DNA from: Clostridia bacterium
GTDB taxonomy: Bacteria > Bacillota > Clostridia > Christensenellales > CAG-314
NCBI GenBank assembly: GCA_017457385.1
Contig: JAFTHO010000098.1
Location: 1-42,680 of the forward strand
Reading direction: 5' to 3'
DNA length: 42,680 nt
In this document: in pieces, positions 4,894 through 42,680 of the stretch
Position numbering within the stretch: the stretch's first letter is position 1
Layout: each line of letters opens with the position of its first letter
Position numbers and translations under genes: made by a program
The notes under the pieces: model-generated
What the model saw: the letters and a program-made list of their open reading frames with translations, nothing else
Databases searched by the model: none
What the model was told of the DNA's origin: nothing

Positions 4894-4910
4894 ATATATC
4901 TAATCTCCCC

Positions 4911-5959: not shown

Positions 5960-6195
5960 AAATATAAAAACGTCCTGACAAAACGTCAGGACGATAAAAA
6001 ATCGTGGTACCACCTAAACTTTTGCACAAAAATTGCGCCTCATTAACAGAGATAACGGTCTTGCCCGCAGTCGACTACGTTGTCACCGACCGAACTACAA
6101 AGTGAATATCTTTTTGTCAACAACTATGGTTTTGCACCACCAACCACTCTCTGAAAGTTGCGCCTGACAAACTCTTGTGCTTTGTCAACGTTTTG
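5960..6195 (-). promoter_or_regulatory. T-box leader (Phe specifier) with terminator/antiterminator, controlling pheST
   Basis: Minus strand contains AGAGAG (complement of 6147-6152) and a distal GGTGGTGCAAAACC. A TTC triplet sits in GTAGTTCGG on the 3' side of Stem I. The T-box core AGGTGGTACCACG is the complement of 6004-6016. A terminator hairpin, 5971-5979 pairing with 5985-5993, is followed by a U-run. An extended -10 TGCTATAAT ends at 6200. Confidence 0.85.
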
Positions 6196-6246
6196 ATGAA
6201 TTATAGCACAAATTTGCCCTTGCAATCAACTGTTTTTGCCCTTGTT

Positions 6247-11713: not shown

Positions 11714-11790
11714 CGGGGTGTAGCGCAGTTTGGTAGCGCACGTGGTTTGGGACCATGGGGCCGGGAGTTCGAGTCTCTTCACCCCGACCA
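11714..11790 (+). tRNA. tRNA-Pro (anticodon UGG)
   Basis: Acceptor cggggtg/caccccg, anticodon loop tttggga, T-arm ggagttcgagtctc, encoded CCA. Confidence 0.9.
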
Positions 11791-11801
11791 CTTAAAATCT
11801 T

Positions 11802-11878
11802 GGGCCTTTAGCTCAGTTGGTCAGAGCGGTCGGCTCATAACCGATTGGTCCGGGGTTCAAGTCCCTGAAGGCCCACCA
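11802..11878 (+). tRNA. tRNA with CAU anticodon; probably tRNA-Ile2 (lysidine-modified) rather than elongator Met
   Basis: Acceptor gggcctt/aaggccc, anticodon loop ctcataa, encoded CCA. The 5' half GGGCCTTTAGCTCAGTTGGTCAGAGC resembles the Bacillus tRNA-Ile(CAU) as I recall it. The identity call is tentative. Confidence 0.85.
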
Positions 11879-11910
11879 TCTTTGATTTTTACAAAAGCAG
11901 CAAATATTAT

Positions 11911-11988
11911 GGCCCGGTAGTTCAGTCTGGTTAGAACGCTAGCCTGTCACGCTAGAGGTCGAGGGTTCGAGCCCCTTCCGGGTCGCCA
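11911..11988 (+). tRNA. tRNA-Asp (anticodon GUC)
   Basis: Acceptor ggcccgg/ccgggtc, anticodon loop cctgtcacg, T-arm gggttcgagcccc, encoded CCA. Confidence 0.9.
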
Positions 11989-11996
11989 ATATATTT

Positions 11997-12072
11997 GCCT
12001 CGGTAGCTCAGTCGGTAGAGCAGGAGACTGAAAATCTCCGTGTCGGTGGTTCAATTCCGCCCCGAGGCACCA
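11997..12072 (+). tRNA. tRNA-Phe (anticodon GAA)
   Basis: Acceptor gcctcgg/ccgaggc, anticodon loop actgaaaat, encoded CCA. Confidence 0.9.
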
Positions 12073-12108
12073 ATATATTTGGGTGTTAATTAAATAAAAA
12101 TTTTTTGT

Positions 12109-12185
12109 GCTGGTGTAGCTCAACTAGGCAGAGCAACTGACTTGTAATCAGTAGGTTGTTGGTTCGATTCCGATCACCAGCTCCA
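12109..12185 (+). tRNA. tRNA-Thr (anticodon UGU)
   Basis: Acceptor gctggtg/caccagc, anticodon stem actga/tcagt with loop cttgtaa, encoded CCA. Confidence 0.9.
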
Positions 12186-12194
12186 CTTTTTTTT

Positions 12195-12279
<85 letters not shown>

Positions 12280-16016: not shown

Positions 16017-17540
16017 TTAAAGCAATGCCATTGCAATATTGCAATATATAACGAGTGACAATACGTCAACAATCGTTGTGATAAATGGGTTTGCAACAAC
16101 AGCCGGGTCAAGACGAAGTTTTTTTGCAAGCAAAGGCAACGAACAACCAACAATCTTTGACAAAATGACTGTGGCAAACATTGCGATAGATATTACCAGT
16201 GCAATCATCAGATTTTCTGCAACACCATCAATTACAATAAGTTTTACAAAGCAGAATACTGACAAAATTGCACCGAGCAAAATAGAAACTCTGAATTCTT
16301 TCCACAATACTCGCAAAATATCGCCAAATTCCACTTCTCTTATGGCAAGACAACGAATAATTGTTGCAGATGCCTGACCGCCGGCATTACCACCCGTACC
16401 CATAAGCATTGGGATAGACGCCGTGAGAGTGATTGAGAAGGCCAAAGTTGCCTCGTTTGCCTCAATGAGCATACCAGAAAAAGTTGCCGAAATCATCAAA
16501 AACAACAGCCAAGGCAATCTATTCCAGCACAAACGCCATACACTTGTTTTAAGATATGGTTTGTCTGTTGGTGTGATAGCGGCCATTTTTGAGATATCTT
16601 CCGTTGCTTCTTCCTGCAGGATATCCATGGCGTCGTCGATTGTGACGATACCAACAAGTCGGTTTTCTTTGTCAACGACAGGCAATGCCAAAAAGTCATA
16701 TTTGTCAAACTCGTTGGCAACAACTTCTCGGTCGGTGTCAACTTCGACAGACACAATGTTTGTTTCCATAATTTCGGAAATTTTTGTGTCCATGCTGTTG
16801 AGCATAAGTGATCTTGCACTTACTACACCCAAAAGTTCACGCTTATCGTCGGTTACGTAACAAGTATAAACAGTTTCGCTGTCAATACCCGTTTTGCGGA
16901 TTTTGTCAAAAGCCTGCGCAACGGTAAAGTCTTTGCTGAATCGAACGTATTCGACAGTCATTATACTGCCGGCACTGTCTTTTGGATATTTTAAAATCTG
17001 GTTGATAGTTTCGCGCGTTTCTTTGTCTGCGTGTTTGAGCATCCTGATAACAATGTTTACAGGCATGTCTTCGATGATGTCAACTGCGTCGTCGACAAAC
17101 AATTCGTCCATCATCAACTGCAACTCTTTATCGCTGAATGCCGTGATCAAAACTTCTTGCAGGTCACTGTCAAGTTCTACAAAAGTATCTGCTGCAACGT
17201 CTCTTGGCAAAAGCCTGAAAACAAACGGTAACTGTTTTTTGGGGATTTCCTGAAAAAAGTCTGCAAGGTCGATAGGCTCCATCTCTGCAAGCAAAGGTCT
17301 GAGGTCAAGAAAATATTTTTCTTCAAACAATTGTCCTGCAAGATTTTCACGGGCTTCGATTTCCATCTCGACAAAAGTATCAAGTGCAAGTTTTTTTGGC
17401 AACAGTCTGAATACGTCAACCAACGAATCTTCTGGAACCAGAGTTAAAAATTCTGCAATATCTTCTGGCTGTTCTTCGCTCAAAATTTGTTTAAGCACGT
17501 CTATTTGATTGTCTTCGAGCAAAGTAAGCAATTCTTTCAT
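16017..17540 (-). CDS. mgtE: Magnesium transporter MgtE
   Basis: MgtE N-domain, tandem CBS domains and the TM domain (GNAGGQASATIIR) are present. Start set at ATG 17538-17540 (MKELLTLLEDNQ), preceded by AAAGGAGGAATCAG. The 31 upstream codons of the track ORF run through the M-box terminator. Confidence 0.92.
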   Translation of the reverse strand: MKELLTLLEDNQIDVLKQILSEEQPEDIAEFLTLVPEDSLVDVFRLLPKKLALDTFVEMEIEARENLAGQLFEEKYFLDLRPLLAEMEPIDLADFFQEIPKKQLPFVFRLLPRDVAADTFVELDSDLQEVLITAFSDKELQLMMDELFVDDAVDIIEDMPVNIVIRMLKHADKETRETINQILKYPKDSAGSIMTVEYVRFSKDFTVAQAFDKIRKTGIDSETVYTCYVTDDKRELLGVVSARSLMLNSMDTKISEIMETNIVSVEVDTDREVVANEFDKYDFLALPVVDKENRLVGIVTIDDAMDILQEEATEDISKMAAITPTDKPYLKTSVWRLCWNRLPWLLFLMISATFSGMLIEANEATLAFSITLTASIPMLMGTGGNAGGQASATIIRCLAIREVEFGDILRVLWKEFRVSILLGAILSVFCFVKLIVIDGVAENLMIALVISIAMFATVILSKIVGCSLPLLAKKLRLDPAVVANPFITTIVDVLSLVIYCNIAMALL

Positions 17541-17561
17541 CTGATTCCTCCTTTTTGACGA

Positions 17562-17775
17562 TAAAAAAGGCTTTGTCAAACCCGAATGATGACAAAGCCA
17601 AAAATACAAGAAATTTGATATATCATCGTCCAAGCTTTAGCATCACAGGGCGATGAAACTGCATTAGGTTATGCCTTGCGTTCGACATATCCTGCTGACC
17701 AACTCAAAGTGTCTCCACACTTCTGCGGTAGCAATCCGTATCCCTGTGGTAGCCTTACCTACCGAATATTTTATC
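17562..17775 (-). promoter_or_regulatory. M-box (ykoK-type Mg2+) riboswitch with intrinsic terminator
   Basis: Minus strand reads TTCGGTAGGTAAGGCTACCACAGGGATACGGATTGCTACCGC ... GCTAAAGCTTGGACGA. This resembles the B. subtilis mgtE M-box blocks GTTAGGTGAGGCT, GATACG..TGCTGCC and CTAAAGCTC as I recall them. The terminator pairs ggctttgtc (17569-17577) with gacaaagcc (17591-17599) and is followed by a U-run. Confidence 0.85.
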
Positions 17776-17883: not shown

Positions 17884-19833
17884 TTATTCTTTGTCTGCTT
17901 TTGCTTCTTGTGGTTGTTCCATAGTAGCTTTTCTTGACAAAGTTACACGTTTGCTTTCTGGATTGAATTCTGTGATAGCAACGTCGATTTCATCGCCAAC
18001 TTTAAGCACTTTTTTGATGTCGTCAACCCATTCCCATGATACGTTAGAAACATGGAGCAAACCGTCTACACCTGGAGCGATTTCTACAAATGCACCAAAT
18101 GGAAGGATACGAGCAACTTTACCTTTTGTTACACTGCCAACAGGGAAAGATTCGTATGCGATTTGCCATGGATCTGGCAAAAGTTGTTTGTAACCGATAG
18201 ACACTCTGTTAGATTCTCTGTCGAGTTTGAGAACTACAAATTCATAAGTTTTGTTGAGTTCCAAAACTTCAGATGGATCTTTTACTGCTGTCCAAGACAA
18301 GTCACTTACGTGAGCAAGGCAGTCAAAACCTCTTACGTTAACGAAAGCACCGAAAGAAGCAAATCTTACAACTTGACCTTCTACGATTTCACCAACTTCG
18401 ATATTTGACCAGAAGTTGTCTTCTTTAGCTTTCTTTTCAGCTTCGATCAAAACTTTTTGACTTGCAACGATTTTTCTCTTGCTGTCGTCAATGCCGTCAG
18501 GAAGAGCAACCAATCTGAGTTTTTTGCCAACGTATTTTGACAAATCTTTTACAAAACCAGAACGGATTTGTGATGCTGGTACAAATACTGTATAGCTGCC
18601 GAGTTTAGAAAGCAAACCACCGTTTACCGCTCTGCTTGCTACCAATGAAAATTCTTTGCCTTGTTTGATTTCTTCTACCAAAGCATCGTCTTTGTACAAT
18701 TCTTCGATAGCTTTTCTTGAAAGGATAATATCTTTATCAGCAGACAAAACAACAACTTCGATTGTCTCGCCCAGTTTAAGATTTTCTTTCGCAGTTTGAT
18801 AATCCCCATCCAAAGCGATTTCGTCATTAGGGATAAAGCCTTCTTTTTTAGAGAAGTCAAAGTTAAGGTTGATACCTGCATCACTGATGAAAGTAATTCT
18901 GCCTTTGAGTTTTTGACCCTTTTTCAAAGACTTTTTGTTCAACTTTTCGATTGCGTTGATGAACAATTCGTTGTCTGATACGACAGTTTCAATGTTGTTG
19001 TCTTTAGTTTGTTCAGCCATTTTTGCTAAAACCTCCTCAATCAACTCACTTGGAGTTGACGCTCCTGCTATGATACCTATATTTTCTGTATATGAAAAGT
19101 CAAAATTTTCAAGTTCATCCACCCTTTCGATACTCACGACGTTTTTGCACAAACCTGAGCAAATTTCCGCAAGACGACGGGTATTTGAGCTGTTTTTGCC
19201 ACCGACCACAATGACAGAATCACATTGTGATGCTACTTGCGCAGCATATTTTTGCCTCTCCGTAGTAGTATAACAAATAGTGTTAAAAATTTCAAGTATT
19301 TTGTTGTTATCTTTGCCAAGATTTTCGATAGCTTTTTGCACTTTTTCTACGTTGTAAGTGGTCTGAAACAGTACAAAAACCTTGTCAAACGCAGATAAAT
19401 CGAGTTTTTGACTACCATCCGTTATAATTGCAGAATTGTCACACCAACCGTTCACACCAATAATTTCAGGATGATCTTTGTGGCCGATAATGACAATCTG
19501 ATAATTTTTTTTATAATATTCTGTTGCCTTGTCGTGCAAAATCTTTACAAACGGGCAGGTTGTATCCACAATATTTATACCTTTGCTCTCGCAAAAGTCA
19601 AAAATATATTTTGATGCACCGTGTGCAGTAATGATTAGAGTATCTCCTTTTTTAAGGTTTGATACGTCATCAATAATTGTTATCCCCTTGTCTTCCAGCT
19701 GTTTTACCACAAGCGGATTGTGCACGATTTCGCCAAGACAATATACGTTTTCTCCCGCATTGTCCAAAGCCATTTTAACAGCTCTTTTTACACCGGAGCA
19801 AAAACCATTGTTTTTAGGCTGAATTATTTTCAA
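17884..19833 (-). CDS. ispH: Bifunctional 4-hydroxy-3-methylbut-2-enyl diphosphate reductase (IspH/LytB) fused to ribosomal protein S1-like repeats
   Basis: The N-terminal ~280 aa match the IspH pattern (GFCSGVKRAV, TAHG, TCPFV, NTIC..T). The C-terminal ~360 aa carry four S1 motifs (e.g. GEIVEGQVVRFASFGAFVNV, GSVTKGKVARILPFGAFVEI). A TTG start overlaps the plsC stop. Confidence 0.9.
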   Translation of the reverse strand: MKIIQPKNNGFCSGVKRAVKMALDNAGENVYCLGEIVHNPLVVKQLEDKGITIIDDVSNLKKGDTLIITAHGASKYIFDFCESKGINIVDTTCPFVKILHDKATEYYKKNYQIVIIGHKDHPEIIGVNGWCDNSAIITDGSQKLDLSAFDKVFVLFQTTYNVEKVQKAIENLGKDNNKILEIFNTICYTTTERQKYAAQVASQCDSVIVVGGKNSSNTRRLAEICSGLCKNVVSIERVDELENFDFSYTENIGIIAGASTPSELIEEVLAKMAEQTKDNNIETVVSDNELFINAIEKLNKKSLKKGQKLKGRITFISDAGINLNFDFSKKEGFIPNDEIALDGDYQTAKENLKLGETIEVVVLSADKDIILSRKAIEELYKDDALVEEIKQGKEFSLVASRAVNGGLLSKLGSYTVFVPASQIRSGFVKDLSKYVGKKLRLVALPDGIDDSKRKIVASQKVLIEAEKKAKEDNFWSNIEVGEIVEGQVVRFASFGAFVNVRGFDCLAHVSDLSWTAVKDPSEVLELNKTYEFVVLKLDRESNRVSIGYKQLLPDPWQIAYESFPVGSVTKGKVARILPFGAFVEIAPGVDGLLHVSNVSWEWVDDIKKVLKVGDEIDVAITEFNPESKRVTLSRKATMEQPQEAKADKE

Positions 19834-23137: not shown

Positions 23138-24535
23138 TCAAACTGGTAAAACTTTGTTGTTTTTGTCGTAGATTTGTGAGTCTACACCATATTTTTTAGC
23201 TTGCCTGTATTTAAAGAAGTTGAGCGCAACCTGTTGGAATACTGCGTAGCTCAAAATGTCTTCTTCCTGTTCGTAATATTCTTTGATTTCATCTCTGAAT
23301 TTGTCAAGCTCTGGTGCAAGATCATCTGCAGGTCTGTGATCAATTGTTGGAGTGTCACCCAAAATTTGTTTTACAACTTCTGGATCTGGTTGAGCAGGCA
23401 ATCTGCCATATTCACCACGCAAAACACCCTTTGATTCGTTTGTAACGGCAGAATATCTCTTGCCTGTCAAAACGTTGAGTACGGCTTGCGTACCAACGAT
23501 CTGGCTTGAAGGAGTAACCAAAGGTGGATAACCAAAGTCTTTGCGAACGCGTGGAACTTCTGCCAATGCTTCCTCCAGCTTGTCGCTCTTGCCTTGTTGT
23601 TTGAGTTGGCTGATAAGGTTTGAAAGCATACCGCCCGGTACCTGATAGATAAGAGCGTTTACGTCAACTTTCAAAACTTTTTGAGTAAGGAAGCCATCGT
23701 CCATAAGACGTTTTGCAACACCTTTGAAGTGATCGTTGATTTCTGCAAGTAAAGCAAGATCAAGACCAGTGTCATATTCTGTATCACGAAGTGCAGCAAC
23801 CATAGATTCTGTTGCAGGCTGACTTGTGCCGTCACCAAGAGCAGAAAGTGCCGTATCAATGATGTCAACGCCTGCTTCCACTGCTTTCATGTATACCATA
23901 TTGCCAGTGCCGGCAGTGTTGTGAGTATGCAAATGGATAGGAACTTTTACTGCTGATTTGAGTGCTTTGATGAGTTCATAAGCTTCGTATGGCAACAAAA
24001 CGCCCGCCATATCTTTGATACAAATGATATCTGCACCCATTTGTTCCATTTCTTGTGCAAGTTTTACAAAATATTCTCTTGTATGAACAGGGCTTGTTGT
24101 ATATGACATTGCAATTTCGCAAGTGCCACCAAATTTTTTGCATGCTTTTACTGCAGTTTCGATATTGCGTGTATCGTTGAGTGCGTCAAAAATACGGATG
24201 ATGTCAATACCATTTTTGATAGAAAGCTCTACAAACTTTTCTACAACGTCATCTGCATAGTGTCTGTAACCCAAAAGGTTTTGACCACGCAAAAGCATTT
24301 GCAATTTTGTGTTAGGCAATGCTTTGCGCAAAGCACGGAGTCTGTCCCATGGGTCTTCGTTCAAAAAGCGAAGGCAACTGTCAAAAGTTGCGCCACCCCA
24401 TACTTCCAAAGAGTGATAGCCAACTTTGTCGAGTTTTTCGCACATAGGGAGCATTTCTTCAAGGCGCATTCTAGTTGCAGCCTGAGATTGGTGTGCATCC
24501 CTGAAAATTGTATCTGTAATTAAAACTTTTTTCAT
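23138..24535 (-). CDS. Oxaloacetate decarboxylase alpha-type / transcarboxylase 5S-type carboxyltransferase, lacking a biotinyl domain
   Basis: ITDTIFRDAHQS, EVWGGATFD, MLLRGQNLLGY and HLHTHNTAG are typical of the PYC/OADA carboxyltransferase family. At 465 aa there is no C-terminal AMKM biotin domain. Confidence 0.85.
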   Translation of the reverse strand: MKKVLITDTIFRDAHQSQAATRMRLEEMLPMCEKLDKVGYHSLEVWGGATFDSCLRFLNEDPWDRLRALRKALPNTKLQMLLRGQNLLGYRHYADDVVEKFVELSIKNGIDIIRIFDALNDTRNIETAVKACKKFGGTCEIAMSYTTSPVHTREYFVKLAQEMEQMGADIICIKDMAGVLLPYEAYELIKALKSAVKVPIHLHTHNTAGTGNMVYMKAVEAGVDIIDTALSALGDGTSQPATESMVAALRDTEYDTGLDLALLAEINDHFKGVAKRLMDDGFLTQKVLKVDVNALIYQVPGGMLSNLISQLKQQGKSDKLEEALAEVPRVRKDFGYPPLVTPSSQIVGTQAVLNVLTGKRYSAVTNESKGVLRGEYGRLPAQPDPEVVKQILGDTPTIDHRPADDLAPELDKFRDEIKEYYEQEEDILSYAVFQQVALNFFKYRQAKKYGVDSQIYDKNNKVLPV

Positions 24536-24547
24536 ATTAAATCTCCA

Positions 24548-25723
24548 TTAAACACCAAAGAACGCAAGCAAAACACCTGCTGCTACGGCAGAACCAATAA
24601 CGCCTGCTACGTTTGGACCCATTGCGTGCATGAGCAAGTAGTTTTGAGGATCAGTTTCCTGACCAACTTTTTGCGCAACACGTGCAGCCATAGGAACGGC
24701 TGATACACCTGCCGCACCGATGAGTGGGTTGATTTTTCCACCAGAAAGTTTGCACATAAGTTTGCCGAACAACACACCACATGCAGTTGCAATGCAAAAT
24801 GCAGTAAGACCAAGACCAATGATAAACAAAGTTTGAATATCAAGGAATATATCACCACGTGCTTTTGCACCAACAACAACACCCAACATAATAGTGATAA
24901 TATTCATCAATTCGTTTTGTGCAGTTTTAACAAGTCTGTCACAAACCCCACTTTCTTTCATAAGGTTACCCAACATAAGCATACCTAAAAGTGGCAAAGA
25001 TGATGGCAAAATGATACCTACAACCAAAGTAACAGCAATTGGGAAAATAATTTTTTCCTTTTTAGAAACAGGTCTGAGTTGTTCCATACGGATTGCACGT
25101 TCTTTTTTAGTTGTGAGTGCTTTCATAATTGGTGGTTGAATTGCTGGAATCAATGCCATATACGAATATGCCGCTATTGCAATGATAGAAAGCAAATCAG
25201 GTGCCATTTTTGACGTTACGTAAATAGCCGTTGGACCGTCTGCACCACCTATGATACCGATTGATGCTGCTTCGAGAGCGTTAAAGCCAAGCAAAATTGC
25301 ACCAATGAAAGTTACAAAAATACCAATTTGGGCTGCAGCACCCAACAAAATGCTTTTTGGGTTTGCAATCATTGGACCAAAGTCGGTCATTGCACCAATG
25401 CCCAAAAAGATGAGTGGCGGGAAGATAACCAGGTCTACACCCTGATACAGGAAGTAGAACAAGCCACCCTTTTCTGTTTCACTTGGATGAGCAAATAAAA
25501 CCTCATATGCACCAGGTACGTTGATAATAAACATACCAAATGCAATAGGCAAGAGCAACAAAGGCTCAAATTTTTTGACTATCGCCAAGTAGAACAATAC
25601 AAATGAAATTGCTATCATGACATAGTTTTGCCAAAGTCCCCCTGACAAACCTGTGCTGTTCCAAAAGTTTATAAGGGTTTCGACAATGTCAGTTTCTAGC
25701 AAAGCTGAACTATAAAAACTCAT
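24548..25723 (-). CDS. Sodium ion-translocating decarboxylase beta subunit (OadB/MmdB/GcdB family)
   Basis: 391-aa polytopic membrane ORF. Size, topology and operon position (next to the biotin carrier and carboxyltransferase genes) fit the beta-subunit family. I identified no diagnostic motif from memory. Confidence 0.85.
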
Positions 25724-25733
25724 TGTTTAACTC

Positions 25734-26087
25734 CTATCCGATATAAGCCAAGATATCTCCAGTATCTACGTTTGTGCCTTTTTGTGTAGCAAAAGTGATT
25801 TTACCATCTGCAGATGCAGCAATTTCGTTTTCCATTTTCATAGCTTCGAGAATAATTACTGCCTGGCCTTTTTTAACTGTATCACCTTCGTTAACGAGGA
25901 ATTTCATAACCATACCTGGCATTGGTGATTTAAGAGCTTCGCCACTGCCTTTTACTGCTGGTTTTGCAGCTGGAGCTGGAGCAGCTGCTTTTGGAGCAGA
26001 AACAACTTGAACACTTTCACCAGCGCCAACTTCTTCTACTTCTACCTGATAACTGTTTCCGTTTACGTTTACAACAAATTTTCTCAT
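25734..26087 (-). CDS. Biotin carboxyl carrier subunit of the decarboxylase
   Basis: An Ala/Pro linker (APKAAAPAPAAKPA) is followed by the biotinylation motif EAMKMENEI. Start set at ATG 26085-26087 (RBS TGGAG plus 9 nt). Confidence 0.88.
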   Translation of the reverse strand: MRKFVVNVNGNSYQVEVEEVGAGESVQVVSAPKAAAPAPAAKPAVKGSGEALKSPMPGMVMKFLVNEGDTVKKGQAVIILEAMKMENEIAASADGKITFATQKGTNVDTGDILAYIG

Positions 26088-26089
26088 AA

Positions 26090-26422
26090 TTATTTGCTCC
26101 ATTTAAGTTTTTCTATTTTTTTGATAACAAACTCTGCATCAGAGTCTGTTGTATCGTCATCCTGCAACATTGTATAAATGCATGCAGAAATAACTGCTAC
26201 AATTTCATCGTCATTTTGCTCAACTACTTCTTGAGTTGCGGTAACTGCAGGTTTTGGTTCGTCTTTAACTTTTGGTTTTGCTTTTTTGTTTTCAAGTGCC
26301 ATAAACACTTTGCTTTGCAAAAACAAATAAGCAATGATGATACACAAAACGCCAAAGACAATCAAAATACCCATACCGGCAACAACAAGAGCATCACCAA
26401 AGGTAAAATTGTCTATATTCAT
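26090..26422 (-). CDS. Small membrane subunit of the decarboxylase (OadG/MmdD-like)
   Basis: 110 aa with one N-terminal TM segment (VVAGMGILIVFGVLCIIIAYLFL) and a charged tail. Its position between the carboxyltransferase and biotin carrier genes supports the call. Confidence 0.5.
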   Translation of the reverse strand: MNIDNFTFGDALVVAGMGILIVFGVLCIIIAYLFLQSKVFMALENKKAKPKVKDEPKPAVTATQEVVEQNDDEIVAVISACIYTMLQDDDTTDSDAEFVIKKIEKLKWSK

Positions 26423-26432
26423 ATGTCACCTC

Positions 26433-27800
26433 TTATTTGTTGAACATTGCCTGCAATTCTGCAATCAAATGAATACGTGTATATTTTGCTTCGATAACTT
26501 TGTCAATAAGGCCTTTTTCTGCCGCATAATATGGATCAGAATCAACCTGTTCGTATTTTGCAATAGCGTCTTCACGTGCCTGAACAGGATTGTCTGCTTT
26601 TGCAATTTCGTCACCATATACAACAAGACCACCAACTTCTTTGGCAACAGGAGCAACAACTGCACTTTCCCATGCAATCACGCTGTCGCACCCAAGTGAT
26701 TTAGAAGCAAGCAAAGTATAACCGATACCAATAGCATTGCCAGTGATAACAGAAATGCGTTTTACACCCTCTATGCTCTGTACGTATTTTGCAACGTCTG
26801 ACAACATAGAAGATTGTTCCAATCTCATAGAAACAGGAGCACCTTGGCAATCTACCAGACTGATGAGTGGCAAACCACCGAGATAGCAGATATCTGCAAT
26901 TTTTGAGATTTTGCTGAGTGAACCAGGGCAAAGCACGCCACCGAGTTCGTCTTTATTTGTTGCAACGATACCGACAGAATATCCACCGATTTTAGCAAGA
27001 CCTGCAACAACGTTTTTTGCATAGTCTGCATAACATTCGATAAAACTGTCTTTATCTGCAATTTGTTTGATTTTGTCAACTGCACTTGCACTTTCAATTT
27101 TGCCGAGAGCTTTATTTAGATCTGCATCTGACAAATCTTCGCCAACACCATACAAAGTATCAAGCAATTTAGAAATATGTGCACTGAGTTCTTCTTTTTT
27201 AACAACAAAAGTGCAGGCACCAGTTTCGCCTTGCAATTTTGCACCAAACAAAACGTTTGCATTGCCAGAAAGATTTTCCTGTGCAGAAAGTACTGCAGGG
27301 CTGTTGATTGCCATTACACTTTCTTCTGTCATATAGACAAAATCACAAAGTGATGCAAACAAAGCCATACTACCCAAAGCATTGCCTTTTACTATGCAGA
27401 TGCTTGGTTGATTTGTTTCTTTTGCGCTTGCCAAAATGCTTGCATAACTGTCAAGCAAAGCAACGCCTTCTTCAATTTTGCCACCACAAGAGTCCAATAC
27501 AAATACAGTAGGCAAGTTGTTGTCATATGCAGTATTGCATGCTTTAACAAATTTTTCTGCCTGCTGTTTGCTCATTCCTCCTTGTGTAACTTCGCTGTTT
27601 TGAGCAACAACAAAAACAAGTTTGCCACCGATTGAAGCCTGACCCCATACAACTGATTTGCCACCGTTTTCGCTTGCAAAAAACTCATTGCTTTCTACAA
27701 AACTCTGGTCGTCAATAACGTTGCCAAGGAAGTCTTTAACGTTTTTTGTGCATTGTTTGTGCTGTTTTTGTCTTTCAGCCAACAATTGTTTTCTGTCCAT
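26433..27800 (-). CDS. Acyl-CoA carboxyltransferase (12S / MmdA / GcdA / PccB-like), short form
   Basis: The two-lobed carboxyl-transferase pattern is present (GGKLVFVVAQNSEVTQGGMS, VFVLDSCGGKIEEG, GLPLISLVDCQGA, ITGNAIGIGY). At 455 aa it is shorter than the ~510-590 aa I expect for characterised members. Confidence 0.75.
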   Translation of the reverse strand: MDRKQLLAERQKQHKQCTKNVKDFLGNVIDDQSFVESNEFFASENGGKSVVWGQASIGGKLVFVVAQNSEVTQGGMSKQQAEKFVKACNTAYDNNLPTVFVLDSCGGKIEEGVALLDSYASILASAKETNQPSICIVKGNALGSMALFASLCDFVYMTEESVMAINSPAVLSAQENLSGNANVLFGAKLQGETGACTFVVKKEELSAHISKLLDTLYGVGEDLSDADLNKALGKIESASAVDKIKQIADKDSFIECYADYAKNVVAGLAKIGGYSVGIVATNKDELGGVLCPGSLSKISKIADICYLGGLPLISLVDCQGAPVSMRLEQSSMLSDVAKYVQSIEGVKRISVITGNAIGIGYTLLASKSLGCDSVIAWESAVVAPVAKEVGGLVVYGDEIAKADNPVQAREDAIAKYEQVDSDPYYAAEKGLIDKVIEAKYTRIHLIAELQAMFNK

Positions 27801-35906: not shown

Positions 35907-37589
35907 TTATAATTCTTTTTTAAACCTGTTTGCCCATTTGACAAGATCTTTTGCATGCAGTTGACCATATTCGCCAATATCGCCTGCAACAAGACGTGCA
36001 ATTTCATCAATTTTGCCATTTTCGTCTAGTTTTTTGACAGAAGTTTTAGTTTTGTCATCCTGAACGTATTTTTCAATAAGCAAATGTTCGTCTGACATTG
36101 CTGCAATCTGTGGTAAATGGGTAATAACCAGACATTGATAGTCGTGAGATACTTTTGCAAGTTTTTGTCCAACCACTTCTGCAATTTTTCCGCTTATGCC
36201 GGTATCAATTTCGTCAAACACCATAGTAGGTATTTTTTCTATTTTGGCAGTGATGTTTTTGAGAGCAAGCATAAATCTGCTCATTTCGCCACCACTGATG
36301 ATTTTTGACAATGGCTTTACAGGTTCGCCTTTGTTTGCAGAAAAATAAAACTCAACGTTGTCAAAACCAAGCGAACCACATCCATCAAAATCTTCTTTTG
36401 AAGGGATTTTGTCAAAAACAACCACAAAAGTAGCATTTTTCATACCCAGATCGCAAAGTTCTGACATAATTTTTTGCTCAAGAGTTTTTGCAGTCTTTTG
36501 TCTGAATGCAGAAAGTTGCTGACACAAATCATACAATTCGCCCAGCGCAATTTGTTTTTGCTTTTTGAGTTTTGCAACGTAATGATCTGCATTTTTGAGT
36601 TCGTCAAGTTTTTGTTTTGCCTCCTGACAAAAAGCCAAAACGTCCTCGATACTGCCACCATATTTGCGTTTGAGCAGTTTTATTTTATCAAGTCGTGCCT
36701 CAATTCGGTCAAGTTCATACTGATCAAAACTGAGATTGCCCAAAATATCGTCAAGTGTCTCTGCAATATCCTGGATTTCATACTTTACAGAATTGAGTCT
36801 TTGGAAAAGTTCGTCATATTGTGGATCAATATTGCTTATCTGCGACAAAAAGTTTGCAGACGCGCTCACATTTGACAAGCAACTGCCTTGTCCGTTGAGC
36901 ATATCCATTGCAGAAGAACAAGAATGTGAAATTTTTTCGAAAGCTTGTCCCTTTTTCTTTTGCAAAAGCAATTCGTCATCTTCGCCAACAACAAGTTCGG
37001 CAAGTTCGATTTCGTTCGTCTGATAAGACAACATATCAATGAGACGTTCTCTCTCACTGTCGTTGCCACCAAATTTTTTAAACTGACTGTTAATTTCATC
37101 AATTTTTTCACTTGCCTGTTTTACTTTTGACAAAAGGTCTGCGTCACTGTCATATCCGTCTAAAATGCTTAGATGATTTTCTGGCCTGAGCAAAAAAGTA
37201 TGTTCGTTCTGACCAAAAATATCAACCAAAGAGGCCGAAATTTGCTTTAAAACAGCCTGATTTGCAAGACGACCGTTTATCCTGATTTCGTTTTTTCCTC
37301 CGACAGACATTGTTCTGGCAACTGTAAACACACCATCGTCTGACTCAAAACCGTTTTGTTCAAATACGTTGTCTTTTGGGCACTCAAAAACACTCTCTAC
37401 AAATGCAGAAGTTTGTCCCGATTTGATGAGAGTTTTGTCAGCTCTTGCGCCAAGCACAAAAGCCAGCGAATCTATAATGATAGATTTACCGGCACCTGTT
37501 TCGCCACTGAGAATATTTAGACCATCAGAAAACTCGATATAAGTTTCTTCGATCAATGCAATGTTTTTGATAAAAAGACTTTTTAACAT
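35907..37589 (-). CDS. recN: DNA repair protein RecN
   Basis: 560 aa with Walker A GETGAGKS, a long coiled-coil middle region, the signature ISGGEMSR and Walker B VFDEIDTG. Confidence 0.93.
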   Translation of the reverse strand: MLKSLFIKNIALIEETYIEFSDGLNILSGETGAGKSIIIDSLAFVLGARADKTLIKSGQTSAFVESVFECPKDNVFEQNGFESDDGVFTVARTMSVGGKNEIRINGRLANQAVLKQISASLVDIFGQNEHTFLLRPENHLSILDGYDSDADLLSKVKQASEKIDEINSQFKKFGGNDSERERLIDMLSYQTNEIELAELVVGEDDELLLQKKKGQAFEKISHSCSSAMDMLNGQGSCLSNVSASANFLSQISNIDPQYDELFQRLNSVKYEIQDIAETLDDILGNLSFDQYELDRIEARLDKIKLLKRKYGGSIEDVLAFCQEAKQKLDELKNADHYVAKLKKQKQIALGELYDLCQQLSAFRQKTAKTLEQKIMSELCDLGMKNATFVVVFDKIPSKEDFDGCGSLGFDNVEFYFSANKGEPVKPLSKIISGGEMSRFMLALKNITAKIEKIPTMVFDEIDTGISGKIAEVVGQKLAKVSHDYQCLVITHLPQIAAMSDEHLLIEKYVQDDKTKTSVKKLDENGKIDEIARLVAGDIGEYGQLHAKDLVKWANRFKKEL

Positions 37590-37590
37590 T

Positions 37591-38043
37591 TTATTCGATT
37601 ATACCCAAAAGCTTTTGATTGAGAATATATGCATCTTCGTTTGATTTTGCAATGATGAGCAAAGTGTCGTCACCCGCAACACTGCCAAACATCTCTGGAA
37701 AATGCAACTGGTCAATGACCATACCAACTGCGTTTGCACTGCCACTGAGAGTTTTTACAATGACAAGATTGTTTGCAGACACAATTGTGATGACTGCCTC
37801 GCGAAAAACGTTGAGAAGTTTTTCTGAAACACGGATATCTTTTGATTTTACAGAAGTATATTTATATTTGTTGTTTGAAGAAAGTGTTTTTACAAGACCC
37901 AACTCCTTTATATCACGAGAAATTGTCGCTTGTGTAACACAAATACCACAATTTGCCAATTCGGCAACCAATTCTTCTTGAGTTTCTACGTCTTTGTTTG
38001 CGATTATATCCAAGATTTTAGATTGTCTTGTACTTCTGGACAT
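37591..38043 (-). CDS. argR: Arginine repressor
   Basis: 150 aa with a winged-helix N-terminus (RQSKILDIIANKDVETQEELV...TQATISRDIKELGLVK) and the C-terminal GDDT motif (AGDDTLLII). Confidence 0.92.
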   Translation of the reverse strand: MSRSTRQSKILDIIANKDVETQEELVAELANCGICVTQATISRDIKELGLVKTLSSNNKYKYTSVKSKDIRVSEKLLNVFREAVITIVSANNLVIVKTLSGSANAVGMVIDQLHFPEMFGSVAGDDTLLIIAKSNEDAYILNQKLLGIIE

Positions 38044-38060
38044 TTTGTGTTGTCTCCTTT

Positions 38061-38867
38061 TTATTTAAAATTGTTCCATTGAACAAGTTTTTTGTTCAGT
38101 TTGTCATAAAAGTTGCCCTTGTTTATTTTGACAAATTTGAGTGACAGGTCTGATTTTTTAACCAGTACTTTAGTGCCTTTTTGAACGTTTGTTGCAACTT
38201 CTTTTCCGTCAATAAAAATTGAGTTTTGATCATCACGACTTTCTACAACAATTTCTATAACTTCGTTTTCATTAAAAACTATCGATCTGTTATGAAGAGA
38301 ATGCACGCACAACGGAGTGAGCACCAACGCATTTATTTTTGGTCCAAGAATTGGTCCGCCGGATGACAAAGAATATCCTGTTGAACCGGTTGGAGTTGCC
38401 ACGATAACACCGTCTCCCTCATAAGTGTCAATATAAACTTCGTCACTGAATACGTCTATTTTTGCAATGCTATTTCTGTTTGAGCGCACAACCAAAATTT
38501 CGTTGAGAAAGTTAAATACCTTGTCTTCAAGTGAAACCTGCACCATCATACGTTTTTCGATATCGTATTCTTTGTTTTTGATTACAGAAAGTGCTTTTTC
38601 AAATTCAAAAATTTCAACTTCGGACAAAAAGCCCATTCTTCCATTGTTTACTGACAAAATTGGCACGTCTGCTTTTGCCGCACTTTCGCAAACGTTAAGT
38701 ATCGTGCCGTCGCCACCAACAACAACGAGAATGTCACAATTGCTCACGTTATTCATTTCTTCTATGATTTCATAAGTAAAACCAAGTTTTATACAAATTT
38801 TGCAAAGACTTTCGGTTATTGTCATTTTTTCGTCTTTGAATTTGTTTGAATATATTCCAAGGTGCAT
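38061..38867 (-). CDS. nadK: NAD kinase
   Basis: GGDGTIL and the downstream ATPTGSTGYSLSSGGPI motif are present. Confidence 0.9.
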   Translation of the reverse strand: MHLGIYSNKFKDEKMTITESLCKICIKLGFTYEIIEEMNNVSNCDILVVVGGDGTILNVCESAAKADVPILSVNNGRMGFLSEVEIFEFEKALSVIKNKEYDIEKRMMVQVSLEDKVFNFLNEILVVRSNRNSIAKIDVFSDEVYIDTYEGDGVIVATPTGSTGYSLSSGGPILGPKINALVLTPLCVHSLHNRSIVFNENEVIEIVVESRDDQNSIFIDGKEVATNVQKGTKVLVKKSDLSLKFVKINKGNFYDKLNKKLVQWNNFK

Positions 38868-38924: not shown

Positions 38925-38956
38925 ACAAAAAAAATAAGGAGTAAAAACTCCTTATT
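38925..38956 (-). terminator. Rho-independent terminator after dxs (overlaps its stop codon)
   Basis: aataaggagt (38933-38942) pairs with actccttatt (38947-38956) with loop aaaa. An 8-nt U-run follows on the minus strand. Confidence 0.75.
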
Positions 38957-40757
38957 CAATCATATTTTTTAGTTGTTGCATATCAAAACCATTTTCTGAC
39001 AACTGTTCTTGTATAGATGAATGTCTGACAAATTTGTCATCAACGGCAACGATTTTTATTTGTGGTTTAGTCTTAAATTGTGACACAAAAGACAAAATAT
39101 TTTGACCAAGTCCGCCAGAAGATTGATTTTCTTCCATCACGATCCACTTTTTATCGTTTATACGTGACAAAAGCATTTTTTTGTCTGTTGGTTTTACAAA
39201 ACTTGCATTAATTACGTTTATTTTTTGTTGTGAGTTTTGTGCAACCTGCATTGCAATTTTGTTGCAATTTGGACCAACTGCAAAAATGCTGATTTCTCCA
39301 CCATTGTCAAGCAAATATTGCCATTTTGCATATTCAAACTGGCTTTGTTCAAAACAAACGTCACAATCTTTTGGGTATCTTATTGCCAAAGGGGCATCAA
39401 AATCAATTGCAAATTTTAGTGCCTGTTTGAGTTCGTTTACGTCTTTTGGGGCAATTATCGTCATATTTGGCATTGATCCAAGATAAGACAAATCAAACAG
39501 ACCCTGATGAGTTTCGCCATCCTGACCGACAAAACCCGCCCTGTCAATGCAAAAAGTTACAGGCAGTTTGTCAATGCATACGTCGTGCAAAATCTGGTCG
39601 TATGCCCTTTGCAAAAAGGTAGAATATACTGCAACAAAAGGCTTCATACCATTTTTTGCAAGACCTGCCGAAAAAGTAACGGCATGTTGCTCGGCAATGC
39701 CAACGTCAAAAAATTTGTCAGGATGATTTTTTGCAAAACTTTCTATACCTGTTCCTGACGGCATTGCTGCACATACGGCACATATTTTGTCATTTTGTTG
39801 TGCAAGCAAAGACAACTCTTCGCCAAGTGCAGAAGAAAAAGAATATTGCTTTTTATCCTGATTTTTTGGTGAAACACCATGAAAATCCTGTGGATTTTGT
39901 TCTGCAGGGGCATATCCTTTGCCCTTTTTAGTAACAACGTGCAACAAAATTGGTCTGTTGAGTTGTTTTTTGATAGACTTTAAAATTTTGACCATTTTTT
40001 TGACGTTGTTGCCGTCAAATGGTCCTATGTATTTGATGCCAAAATTGCTGAAAAACGTGTTGCTGCCAAACAATGATTTGAAAAAGTTTTTTACCGCGCC
40101 AAAAAACTTGACTATAAATTTGCCAACAAGCGGTATTGCAGACAAAAACTTTGTCATACCATATTTAAACTTGTTGTAACCACTTGCAAGACGAAGTTTT
40201 GAAAGCGTCATTGACACGTTGCCAACGTTTTTTGATATTGACATATTGTTGTCGTTTAGTACGACAAGCATATTTTTTTTATTGACGTTGTTGAGTGCCT
40301 CATAAACCATACCACCAGTCAAAGCACCGTCACCAATGACAGAAACCACGTCAAATTTTTGGTTTTGCATATCCCTTGCCTGACAAATGCCAAGCGCAGC
40401 AGAAACCGAATTGCTTGCATGTCCTGAAACAAAAGCATCCTTTTCGCTTTCTGACGGACAACAAAAACCACTCAAACCATCTTTTTGCCTTAGAGTTTTG
40501 AGCTGATCTTTTCTGCCTGTTAATATTTTGTGCACATATGACTGATGCCCAACGTCCCACAAAATTTTGTCCGCATCGTCAAAAACGTAATGCAAAGCAA
40601 CTGTGAGTTCAACAACCCCCAGATTTGAAGCAAGGTGCCCGCCATTATCCAGGACAACATCTAACAGATATTGCCTGATTTCATCGCACAGCACCTTTAA
40701 TTGCTTTATATCAAGTTTTTTTACGTCCTGAGGACAAGTGATATTTTCGAGATACAT
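38952..40757 (-). CDS. dxs: 1-deoxy-D-xylulose-5-phosphate synthase
   Basis: GGHLASNLGVVELTVALHYVF, GHQSY.HKILTGR and GDGALTGGM (TPP-binding) are present. Start set at ATG 40755-40757 (MYLENI...), 1 nt after the upstream stop. Confidence 0.93.
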   Translation of the reverse strand: MYLENITCPQDVKKLDIKQLKVLCDEIRQYLLDVVLDNGGHLASNLGVVELTVALHYVFDDADKILWDVGHQSYVHKILTGRKDQLKTLRQKDGLSGFCCPSESEKDAFVSGHASNSVSAALGICQARDMQNQKFDVVSVIGDGALTGGMVYEALNNVNKKNMLVVLNDNNMSISKNVGNVSMTLSKLRLASGYNKFKYGMTKFLSAIPLVGKFIVKFFGAVKNFFKSLFGSNTFFSNFGIKYIGPFDGNNVKKMVKILKSIKKQLNRPILLHVVTKKGKGYAPAEQNPQDFHGVSPKNQDKKQYSFSSALGEELSLLAQQNDKICAVCAAMPSGTGIESFAKNHPDKFFDVGIAEQHAVTFSAGLAKNGMKPFVAVYSTFLQRAYDQILHDVCIDKLPVTFCIDRAGFVGQDGETHQGLFDLSYLGSMPNMTIIAPKDVNELKQALKFAIDFDAPLAIRYPKDCDVCFEQSQFEYAKWQYLLDNGGEISIFAVGPNCNKIAMQVAQNSQQKINVINASFVKPTDKKMLLSRINDKKWIVMEENQSSGGLGQNILSFVSQFKTKPQIKIVAVDDKFVRHSSIQEQLSENGFDMQQLKNMIE

Positions 40758-40758
40758 A

Positions 40759-41331
40759 CTAATTTTTTTTGAATACAGACAAAACCCTTGCAACCATATA
40801 AATGATTTTGTTTGAGTTTGTCATTGCATAAGATTTGCCAAGTGATTTGCCAAAAACGGTAAATGCAGCAATAAACGAGCTGAACAACACACTCACCAGA
40901 ATTGACGTGCCGTCTGCAAACTGTTTGATAACGATTGCAGCACCGCATGCACCACTGATGATACCGCAAATGTCACCAATGATATCTGCACACACAGATG
41001 ACACTTTTGGTGCGTTTTTGACAAGTTTTACAGCCATTTTTGCCCCTTTGACCTTGCGGGCAGACATTGACAAAAACGGTTGGATATCACATGATGCCGC
41101 CGCCGTGCCAATCATATCAAATATAACTGATAAAATTATAATAAAGACAATGAGAATATATGCCACAATCAATGGTGCATTGCCCATAACAAGTTCGCTC
41201 ACCAGGCTGAACGCAAAAGAAAGCGTAAGCGTCAAAAGCAACACTATTGCAGGCCATATATTTTTTTTCTTTTCTTTTTTGTGTTTTTCTTCTTTTTTGT
41301 GTTTTTGGGTTTTCTCTCGTTCTTCTTTCAA
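40759..41331 (-). CDS. oapA: Small four-TM membrane protein, candidate OLE-associated protein OapA
   Basis: 190 aa with a TTG start preceded by TAGAGGT plus 6 nt. It has a Lys/Glu-rich N-tail and four hydrophobic segments, and a DxxxD motif (ADIIGDICG). It lies between the large RNA and dxs, the published oapA position. Confidence 0.65.
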   Translation of the reverse strand: MKEEREKTQKHKKEEKHKKEKKKNIWPAIVLLLTLTLSFAFSLVSELVMGNAPLIVAYILIVFIIILSVIFDMIGTAAASCDIQPFLSMSARKVKGAKMAVKLVKNAPKVSSVCADIIGDICGIISGACGAAIVIKQFADGTSILVSVLFSSFIAAFTVFGKSLGKSYAMTNSNKIIYMVARVLSVFKKN

Positions 41332-41344
41332 AATAAACCTCTAT

Positions 41345-41943
41345 AAAAAAATAAAACAGGTGGTGGTAAATTAGGTAAACCTTACGGCATAGGTTCAGTA
41401 GGATTTCCCTATGGGCTACTTCTCGTCGCCGCAGAAGCAGTTTCCTTTTAAAACCCACATTGCGTTGTCACCAATCGCAAAACTGAATCGCCACTTAGTC
41501 CGTACTATAATCCCTAAAATACCTGAAATACAGCCTAGAAGATTTCCTTAACAAACACCCAGACATCTATCCTCTTTTGCAACGCAAATTTCATCACGCG
41601 ATCACCCTCACTCGTTGGCCAACGGCCGAAGGTGTAATCGTGAATCCCGATTGCTATCACTCAAGGCAGGCTACACTGTACACAGCACAAAAAAGCACCG
41701 CATAGCAGGTTTATACCTTATTCAGTAGTATAGAAAACCCACACTACCGATATAAGTCTCCACGGAAAGTGGGAATCAGCCGTATGCCATTACGACTTAC
41801 CCAAAATCCTTAACTCCCAGCATCAGCCCCTGTTTGGGCAACAAAAGCCAACACAAGAAACTTCATCGTTATGCCCTTTGACGATTTTTTACTCCCGTCT
41901 TGGATGAAAAAGTGTCTGACTAGGATACTGCACCACCAGTTTA
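41345..41943 (-). ncRNA. ole: Large structured non-coding RNA, candidate OLE (ornate, large, extremophilic) RNA
   Basis: The ORF track shows no ORF of 60 aa or more in any frame across 41459-41999. G+C is locally high: 32/60 in 41581-41640 versus 8/60 in 41941-42000. Arms 41354-41365 and 41931-41942 are complementary at 11/12 positions and enclose about 590 nt. Many local hairpins are visible (e.g. 41416-41440, 41760-41772). Its own promoter lies at 41950-41978. The gene order ispA - RNA - membrane protein - dxs matches the OLE context. Confidence 0.75.
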
Positions 41944-41949
41944 TTATTT

Positions 41950-41978
41950 ATTTTATCACAAATTTTTAAATATATCAA
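41950..41978 (-). promoter_or_regulatory. SigmaA-like promoter (extended -10) directly upstream of the large RNA
   Basis: Minus strand reads TTGATA (41973-41978), a 17-nt spacer ending TGA, then TAAAAT (41950-41955). The predicted start is near 41943, at the 5' arm of the closing helix. Confidence 0.5.
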
Positions 41979-41999
41979 ATTGATTGATATATAGTTTGC

Positions 42000-42680
42000 T
42001 CAATGATTTCTCGTCTGATTGAATTTGCACAACTCAACGAAAAAATCTGCATTGTCAAAACGTTTTATACTGTCAATTGCAGTTTTTGTATATTCGTCCA
42101 GCTGTTTTTTTGCGCCGTCAATGCCAAGCAGATTTGTATAACTCAGGTTTTGATCAATATCTGCATCGAGCAAATCGTCTGCAACCTGAAAAGCTTTGCC
42201 AAAATTTTCGGCAAAAACAGCAAGATATTCTTGTTGCTCGTTTGTTGCCCCACAATAAATTGCAGTTGCCACAGTGGATGCAAAAATGAGTTTTGCCGTT
42301 TTGTTTTCCGTCAAAAAATCAAGTGTTTCAAAGTCATTTTGTTTGTCACAACAAATATCCACCGCCTGACCACCAATCATACCGCAAATTCCACTGCAGT
42401 CGAAAATATATTTTATTGCCTTGAAATAACTTTGCGAATAGTCGCCATCAAGCAAAGTTTCGCAAGCAAGATTTAGTAAAGCATCTCCTGCCAGCACTGC
42501 ATTTGCCTCGCCAAACTTTTTGTGACAAGATGGTTTTCCTCTGCGAAAATCGTCGTCATCCATACAAGGCAAATCGTCGTGAACAAGCGAATAGGTATGA
42601 ATCATTTCAATTGCAGTTGCAATTTTTTCTATATTTTTGTCATCAACTCCAAAAAGTTTTGCAGTCTCAAACACAAGGCA
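42000..42680 (-). CDS. ispA: Farnesyl/geranyl diphosphate synthase (polyprenyl synthetase); N-terminus runs off the right edge
   Basis: First and second Asp-rich motifs are present (LVHDDLPCMDDDDFRRGKPS and FQVADDLLD). The frame stays open upstream of the track's GTG to position 42680. Confidence 0.9.
   Translation of the reverse strand, partial: CLVFETAKLFGVDDKNIEKIATAIEMIHTYSLVHDDLPCMDDDDFRRGKPSCHKKFGEANAVLAGDALLNLACETLLDGDYSQSYFKAIKYIFDCSGICGMIGGQAVDICCDKQNDFETLDFLTENKTAKLIFASTVATAIYCGATNEQQEYLAVFAENFGKAFQVADDLLDADIDQNLSYTNLLGIDGAKKQLDEYTKTAIDSIKRFDNADFFVELCKFNQTRNH

Follow-up and report, generated by a model that had tools for sequence, protein, structure and literature searches.

We analyzed a 42,680-nucleotide (nt) stretch of contig JAFTHO010000098.1 (the window, at its full length) from an uncultured gut Clostridia bacterium (assembly GCA_017457385.1). 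Near one end of the window, an interval between the isoprenoid genes ispA and dxs had been proposed, from the letters of the DNA alone, to encode an OLE (ornate, large, extremophilic) RNA, a member of a class that reportedly goes back to Puerta-Fernandez et al. in 2006. The locus lies on the minus strand and comprises the following features, given in the direction of transcription.

42000..42674 (-): ispA, farnesyl diphosphate synthase, 5' end cut by the window edge (polyprenyl_synt, 130.9 bits; NCBIfam FPPsyn, 208 bits)
41950..41978 (-): predicted sigma-A promoter of ole, TTGATA, 17-nt spacer, TG-n-TAAAAT (extended -10); 10/12 match with TG
41344..41952 (-): OLE RNA gene, full-length type, 609 nt (RF01071; 222/249 conserved positions; covariation in nine sequences)
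40759..41331 (-): oapA, 190-amino-acid (aa) membrane protein (CNNM, 38.9 bits; DxxxD; four hydrophobic segments)
38952..40793 (-): dxs, 1-deoxy-D-xylulose 5-phosphate (DXP) synthase (TIGR00204, 692 bits)
35907..38867 (-): nadK, argR, and recN, the rest of the canonical ole cluster

The gap that contains the RNA measures 668 bp (41332-41999), from the end of ispA at 42000 to the next minus-strand coding start at 41331. These coordinates reproduced those of the original prediction, as did its G+C counts of 32/60 (41581-41640) and 8/60 (41941-42000), which were both exact. Its claim that no open reading frame (ORF) of at least 60 aa crosses 41459-41999 was also borne out, with ORFs inside this interval reaching only 41 to 46 aa. 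Two longer frames that overlap oapA, a 113-aa ORF at 41117-41458 and a 179-aa plus-strand ORF at 40835-41374, look spurious. The description of the element as GC-rich holds relative to the window (43.2% versus 37.7%; rank 31 of 842 among 609-nt windows) but not in absolute terms. When folded, the minus strand reached -194.4 kcal/mol (z = -3.5), with none of 20 shuffles as good, compared with -135.4 kcal/mol (z = -1.7) for the plus strand. Only one intergenic region of the window exceeds the ole gap in length, and it is occupied by six tRNA genes on the plus strand (11714-12276).

A full-length OLE RNA gene

We scanned the whole window against Rfam 15. The OLE model (RF01071) matched 41344-41952 on the minus strand over 609 nt, covering model positions 1-616 of 616 with no truncation. 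The score of 466.8 bits (E = 4.9e-134) exceeded the gathering score of 50, and in the full Rfam scan no other RNA family matched within the OLE interval. According to the parsed Rfam alignment, the window sequence is identical at 222 of the 249 strongly conserved (upper-case) consensus positions (~89%) and forms canonical pairs at 141 of the 154 base pairs of the model. The 13 noncanonical pairs include a few in the P6, P8, and P9 helices. The covariance-model search that had been suggested as a check was therefore a decisive positive, and with this end-to-end match the assignment to OLE stands. The call of the minus strand is correct, and the placement between ispA and dxs beside oapA is upheld by flanks that encode IspA, a CNNM-like protein with DxxxD, and Dxs. 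We found no evidence against OLE identity in this analysis and regard it as near certain that 41344-41952 on the minus strand is an OLE RNA gene.

The consensus of the class was updated by Fernando & Breaker in 2024, when OLE was catalogued in 2,822 Bacillota genomes (PMC11332333). Because the class is known and the element was found by a standard curated Rfam model, the locus is a re-identification of a class known since 2006 rather than a discovery, and it is typical in every tested respect. We put the probability of the overall reading at roughly 93%: a full-length OLE RNA gene with its OapA partner gene in uncultured spore-forming gut Clostridia, for which a mechanism is proposed below.

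Covariation among homologous loci

Homologous loci were gathered in two ways. An OapA scan of one-genome-per-species contigs yielded 11, and two metagenome contigs were added by exact-sequence look-up. The closest genome in the OapA search was a sheep-colon Clostridia metagenome-assembled genome (MAG; 91% identity), and the closest loci, from gut Clostridia MAGs, came from sheep colon, mouse, and roe deer. The other loci belonged to gut Clostridia, Christensenellaceae- and Oscillospiraceae-labelled MAGs, Pseudoramibacter porci, and three rabbit-gut Bacilli MAGs. Rfam placed an OLE directly upstream of the oapA homologue in 11 of the 13 loci, and full-length copies scored 390 to 466 bits.

Nine distinct OLE sequences (the window plus L001-L008) were aligned with MAFFT. 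The pairs of the Rfam structure of the window sequence, plus a closing helix from the original prediction, were projected onto this alignment and compared with two controls, one with partners slid by 1 to 3 columns and one with 500 column shuffles. Canonical pairs filled 86.2% of the pair cells, versus 40.8 to 47.2% in the slid controls, and 83 of 165 pairs had changed on both sides, versus 18 to 31. Not one of the 500 column shuffles matched the observed covariation values. These counts are conservative if anything, because the alignment was made without structure information. RNAalifold, run on the same alignment, reported 84 compensated pairs and recovered P1, P2, P3/P3.1, and P4, which are missing from the Rfam structure line but described in the literature. 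Approximately 240 columns were invariant among the nine homologues, and the compensatory changes hold among relatives whose OapA proteins are only 41 to 91% identical.

The comparison of covariation and reading frames that had been proposed as a further check favored an RNA as well, with many compensatory changes and no conserved frame seen in the homologous loci. A protein-coding interval was ruled out because ORFs are missing and substitutions track base-pairing, not codons. The OLE of P. porci (L007:3261-3913) is 653 nt long, with insertions in the P7 and P8 regions.

Secondary structure and binding sites

The structural elements recognized in the window RNA are listed in 5'-to-3' order.

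41931..41937 (-): P1 5' strand, GGUGGUG (RNAalifold columns 16-21 pair with 665-670)
41920..41931 (-): P2 5' strand, GCAGUAUCCUAG, containing the CUAG palindrome (pairs with 41530-41538, CUAGGCUGU; RNAalifold)
41903..41918 (-): P3/P3.1 5' strand (RNAalifold columns 35-50 with 451-467, many double changes)
41880..41899 (-): P4 hairpin with A-rich loop, GACGGGAGUAAAAAAUCGUC (model helix positions 54-73; L4 loop AGUAAAAAAU)
41859..41870 (-): J4a/5 segment, AACGAUGAAGUU (sequence fits the consensus CGAUGAAG)
41593..41645 (-): distal P9 hairpin, GUUGGCCAAC loop with GGCC palindrome (model and alignment)
41552..41567 (-): P3/P3.1 3' strand (RNAalifold and single-sequence minimum free energy fold)
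41530..41538 (-): P2 3' strand, CUAGGCUGU (RNAalifold)
41460..41480 (-): P13 hairpin, GUGA tetraloop and 1-nt bulge (bulged A); UUGCG-A-UUG GUGA CAACGCAA fits the model pattern <<<<<-<<<____>>>>>>>>
41418..41438 (-): P14.1 hairpin, GCGA tetraloop (model and alignment)
41359..41365 (-): P1 3' strand, CACCACC (RNAalifold pairing)

The 5' end of the RNA is joined to its 3' half, with RNAalifold columns 16-50 pairing with 451-491 and 665-670. The single-sequence minimum free energy fold also shows these long-range P1, P2, and P3/P3.1 helices. The original prediction had closed the element with a 12-nt helix, the arms of which are indeed complementary at 11 of 12 positions. Its inner 6 to 7 bp (GGUGGUG/CACCACC) are the known P1 and are conserved across relatives. 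The outer five pairs, which are broken in two to seven of the nine sequences, were dropped as unconserved. In P. porci, every variable pair of P1 has changed on both strands (AAGGAA/UUCCUU versus GGUGGU/ACCACC). No other single observation in the data set speaks as clearly for P1.

P2 pairs GCAG...CCUAG with CUAGG...CUGU, and its column 29/485 switches from C-G to U-A in four sequences. The CUAG palindrome in this helix is a reported partial binding site of OapA (PMC12265935). The adjoining P3/P3.1 consists of 9 bp, a 3x3 internal loop, and 4 bp in the window, and appears as a 16-column helix with many compensated pairs in RNAalifold. P3 has been proposed to be a membrane-spanning stem, for which about 12 bp is taken as a sufficient span (PMC12265935), a length to which the P3/P3.1 of the window comes close.

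Several loops correspond to known contacts. The A-rich P4 loop is a dimer contact in structures determined by cryo-electron microscopy (cryo-EM) (PMC12265935, PMC12286853). J4a/5 is one strand of the kink turn (k-turn) bound by OapC/YbxF in H. halodurans (PMC9723947); the conserved strands CGAUGAAG and GGAGUUAAGG of a candidate k-turn at the base of P5 are both present in the window. Farther along, the long irregular helix that had been noted at 41594-41645 with a palindromic cap proved to be a long P9-type arm. Its loop, UUGGCCAA, has a GGCC core, and GGCC occurs at the aligned loop position in seven of nine relatives. In published work on the OLE dimer, the palindromic L9.3/P9 loop is the symmetric kissing loop (PMC12286853). 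A Christensenellaceae-labelled MAG (L002) carries GUUGGCGAAC in place of GGCC (aligned to 41614-41623), a change that breaks the proposed kissing-loop palindrome and may reflect either true variation or a mistake in the assembly.

Near the 3' end, the GNRA tetraloop and bulge of P13 correspond to the primary binding site of OapB, and the GNRA loop of P14.1 corresponds to a weak secondary site (PMC7936274). P14.1 is the helix that had been picked out at 41416-41440, which the model draws as a GCGA-capped hairpin. A further small hairpin suggested at 41760-41772 (ccac/gtgg) falls outside the consensus structure and was discarded, as it conflicts with both the model and the RNAalifold pairings and shows no covariation. 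There, CCCA belongs to a P6-type helix, with UGGG as its partner, whereas GUGGAG joins helices and does not vary.

OLE type and reduced forms

Three forms of OLE have been described: full-length, variant 1 (TANB77), and variant 2 (RF39). Variant 1 has short P7-P9 stems and has often lost the P13 OapB site, and variant 2 is missing P7 and P8 (PMC11332333). Like these variants, the window RNA comes from an uncultured gut Bacillota host and has the same core conserved nucleotides. Unlike them, it keeps long P7, P8, and P9 stems and the GUGA and GCGA loops. Short or absent P7-P9 stems and loss of the P13 site were not seen, all model helices in that region being occupied. Because the P7-P9 helices are filled and the GNRA loops are kept, we classified the RNA as the full-length type and not as a variant. 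It agrees with other full-length OLE RNAs in length, conserved nucleotides, P1-P4, P9, the P13/P14.1 loops, GGCC, oapA, neighborhood, proximal promoter, and a Bacillota anaerobe as host. It differs in the absence of the hairpin at model positions 424-437, a low G+C content (43%), and a few noncanonical pairs. One of the rabbit-gut Bacilli MAGs carries a reduced OLE of 381 nt (L011:3472-3852; 134 bits) upstream of a shorter OapA match, which is probably of the variant 2 type described for RF39 organisms.

The OapA partner

The oapA start codon lies 13 nt past the end of OLE, behind an AGAGG ribosome-binding site. In Pfam, the sole match of the protein was CNNM (PF01595; 38.9 bits), and none of the NCBIfam models matched. 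Kyte-Doolittle analysis gave hydrophobic stretches at approximately residues 27-48, 53-80, 110-136, and 140-162, following a Lys-rich N terminus. The motif DIIGD occupies residues 116-120, and neither of its aspartates varies among 12 homologues. OapA has a published signature of four transmembrane helices, a DxxxD motif that true CNNM domains are without, and distant CNNM similarity (PMC11332333). The DxxxD motif, CNNM match, topology, and synteny together settle the identity of the protein as OapA. A search of PDB sequences returned no meaningful match (best E = 0.99), which leaves no solved structure within sequence reach of OapA.

The transmembrane region of OapA resembles the CNNM domain (PF01595) of the MpfA/CorB/CNNM Mg2+ transporters. 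In contrast to these transporters, OapA has four predicted transmembrane segments and DxxxD, and it lacks CBS and CorC_HlyC; the Pfam scan detected no CBS or CorC domain in the protein. It has been proposed that the OLE ribonucleoprotein (RNP) and MpfA overlap in function and that OLE RNA stands in for the CBS/CorC_HlyC domains (PMC11332333, PMC12265935).

Two of the rabbit-gut uncultured Bacilli MAGs encode OapA-like proteins (L009:3998-4522 and L010:3998-4534) that are 40 to 45% identical to the OapA of the window. Both keep DxxxD as DVVGD, and the L009 protein scores 26.7 bits against CNNM. No OLE was found near either gene at an Rfam E of <= 0.01 within ~4 kb on either side. Their neighbors have no relation to the ole cluster and comprise a gyrB/parE-like gene, genes for an Ig-like surface protein and a polysaccharide deacetylase, and a small membrane ORF. 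We also considered that a mini-OLE upstream of both genes had escaped detection and rejected this idea, with no Rfam match and conserved OLE words absent. When the upstream regions were aligned with the 381-nt variant of L011, nothing but AT-rich noise emerged, and a small membrane protein seems to be encoded there. In these two genomes, OLE may lie elsewhere or be absent.

A conserved predicted promoter upstream of OLE

The -10 element of the predicted ole promoter ends 13 nt before the P1 5' strand. The scan returned 16 promoter-like sites where 12.3 were expected, and a single site proves little. However, a more stringent motif was defined as TTGnnn, a spacer of 16 to 18 nt, a TG extension, and at least five of six matches in the -10 element. 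This motif occurs directly upstream of OLE in six distinct loci, compared with a background of 0.011 per 145 nt in all fetched sequence. In B. halodurans, a proximal promoter drives high OLE expression, with 5' ends near the start of P1 (PMC3413148), and the placement of the predicted promoter matches it. No terminator-like site was found between OLE and oapA.

Gene neighborhood and host

The order nusB...recN is that of the canonical ole cluster (PMC12265935). The window was extended in this respect by a metagenome contig with an identical OapA (L013), on which the spoIIIA operon, nusB, folD, xseA, and xseB lie upstream of ispA. Together, the two give the cluster order nusB-folD-xseA-xseB-ispA-ole-oapA-dxs-nadK-argR-recN, and spoIVB follows downstream, after dxs, nadK, argR, and recN. 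The longest dxs ORF begins with TTG, overlaps the end of oapA by 35 nt, and encodes 613 aa. On a second metagenome contig with an identical OapA (L012), dxs is called right after the oapA stop codon and encodes 601 aa. The true start probably lies near 40757, just past the oapA stop.

The window carries the sporulation genes spoIIAA/AB-sigF, spoVA, spoIVB, ytfJ, and yunB, so we take the host to be a spore former. That the host is anaerobic is inferred from its gut habitat. A membrane-bound Na+-translocating decarboxylase operon at 23138-27800 (-), encoding a carboxyltransferase, OAD gamma, a biotin carrier, OAD beta, and a PYC_OADA alpha subunit, fits an anaerobe that lives by fermentation.

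Approximately 24 kb from ole-oapA, an M-box (Mg2+) riboswitch (RF00380; 105 bits; 17614-17773, minus strand) lies directly upstream of an MgtE transporter gene (16017-17633, minus strand) with MgtE, MgtE_N, and CBS domains in Pfam. This pair may be relevant in view of the link between the OLE RNP and Mg2+ tolerance and of the likeness of OapA to CNNM Mg2+ transporters. At 17884-19833 (-), ahead of an acyltransferase gene and cmk, a gene encodes a 649-aa protein in which IspH/LytB is fused to three S1 RNA-binding domains. IspH/LytB catalyzes the last isoprenoid step of the methylerythritol phosphate (MEP) pathway and is a second isoprenoid-pathway gene in the window beside ispA and dxs. Elsewhere, pheS (345 aa) and pheT (795 aa) at 2506-5948 (-) are preceded by a T-box leader (RF00230; 106 bits; 5984-6197, minus strand).

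Discussion

The locus holds an intact, selectively maintained OLE RNA/OapA gene pair with a conserved predicted promoter. By homology to the OLE RNAs of H. halodurans and Clostridium, this promoter would drive transcription of ole, to which read-through from ispA may contribute. A stable RNA of ~600 nt would then accumulate and form a homodimer through the P4, P5/P6, and P9 loops. OapA would bind it at palindromic CUAG-type sites flanking P3 and tether it to the cell membrane, and in the current structural model P3 may thread through the membrane. If encoded in the genome, OapB, OapC/YbxF, and bS21 would join the RNP. In the reading that we consider most likely, OLE would be the sensing and regulatory module of a CNNM-like OapA transporter of divalent cations (Mg2+), replacing the CBS/CorC domains of MpfA, and would in this way make the cell more tolerant of excess Mg2+, cold, short-chain alcohols, and poor carbon sources. 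Precedents in the literature include a promoter of its own, a stable RNA, and alcohol and cold phenotypes (PMC3413148); the OLE dimer (PMC12286853); the P3 membrane model and OapA binding sites (PMC12265935); and an anticorrelation of mpfA genes with ole, along with the relation of OapA to MpfA (PMC11332333). The regulatory role is the leading hypothesis of the field and is not established; we give it even odds.

Several observations weigh against the proposed reading, mostly on its functional side. To our knowledge, any biochemical role for OLE is a hypothesis in every species studied. A P3 that spans the membrane and the transporter activity of OapA are hypotheses in the papers cited for them, and expression in this host is predicted from the promoter motif. 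Among the annotated ORFs scanned, in the 42.7-kb window only, there was no L7Ae-type (OapC) or KOW-type (OapB) protein. A more minor point concerns structure: one small hairpin of the model, at positions 424-437 and poorly conserved, is missing from the window RNA, which has a 6-nt linker, AUUUCA (~41525-41530), instead.

The consensus draws this hairpin between the 3' strand of P2 and the large helix of the 3' domain. Its absence from all eight aligned relatives as well suggests a clade-wide loss. We offer, as a tentative and rather unlikely extension, that the gut Clostridia clade (the window and L001-L008) represents a slightly streamlined full-length OLE subtype that lacks this hairpin and has its own strong extended -10 promoter driving ole-oapA(-dxs). 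Along with the OLE-less L009 and L010, such a clade would form a natural series on which parts of OLE OapA needs.

The main alternative to a regulator of OapA is that the element is an OLE RNA with a catalytic role, a ribozyme acting on an unspecified substrate. Its size, its ~25% near-invariant nucleotides, and its ornate fold resemble those of large ribozymes (PMC11332333, PMC12265935), and many of the invariant nucleotides of the window fall in joining regions rather than in helices. However, ~20 years have passed with no report of catalytic activity, a single, unspliced product is seen on Northern blots (PMC3413148), and genetic and phylogenetic links point to ion homeostasis of the OapA/MpfA type (PMC11332333). 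We therefore consider catalysis improbable.

Far less probable still is a mainly cis-acting role, in which the 609-nt RNA would be a long, structured leader controlling oapA-dxs instead of a stand-alone RNA. Such an arrangement would fit the mere 13 nt and the ribosome-binding site that separate OLE from the oapA start, the lack of a terminator-like site between them, and a predicted promoter that would drive both jointly. Yet the OLE of B. halodurans is a discrete, very stable RNA of ~600 nt that is protein bound and membrane localized (PMC3413148, PMC12265935), OLE forms an ordered homodimer in vitro (PMC12286853), and its conservation is far above that of known leaders. Finally, a decaying, nonfunctional remnant in a reduced gut genome, as might be imagined from the shortened variants of the gut lineages TANB77 and RF39 (PMC11332333), the 381-nt copy in L011, and the missing 424-437 hairpin, is scarcely credible for an RNA with a full-length match, 89% of conserved positions kept, helices maintained by compensatory changes among relatives, the OapB-site loops retained, and an intact oapA and promoter; to judge from these comparisons, purifying selection on the window OLE is already evident.

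OLE is one of the largest bacterial noncoding RNAs of unexplained biochemical function, and recent cryo-EM work suggests that it may span the membrane. The full-length OLE RNA gene described here, a typical member of its class in an uncultured organism, opens no new question and makes the old one no more testable. Comparative alignments gain marginally, for example, from the P1 compensation in P. porci and the conserved promoter. The class gains a further full-length member, this one from gut Clostridia of an uncultured lineage. For annotation, the value is that the 668-bp gap is a gene and that the downstream "hypothetical membrane protein" is OapA.

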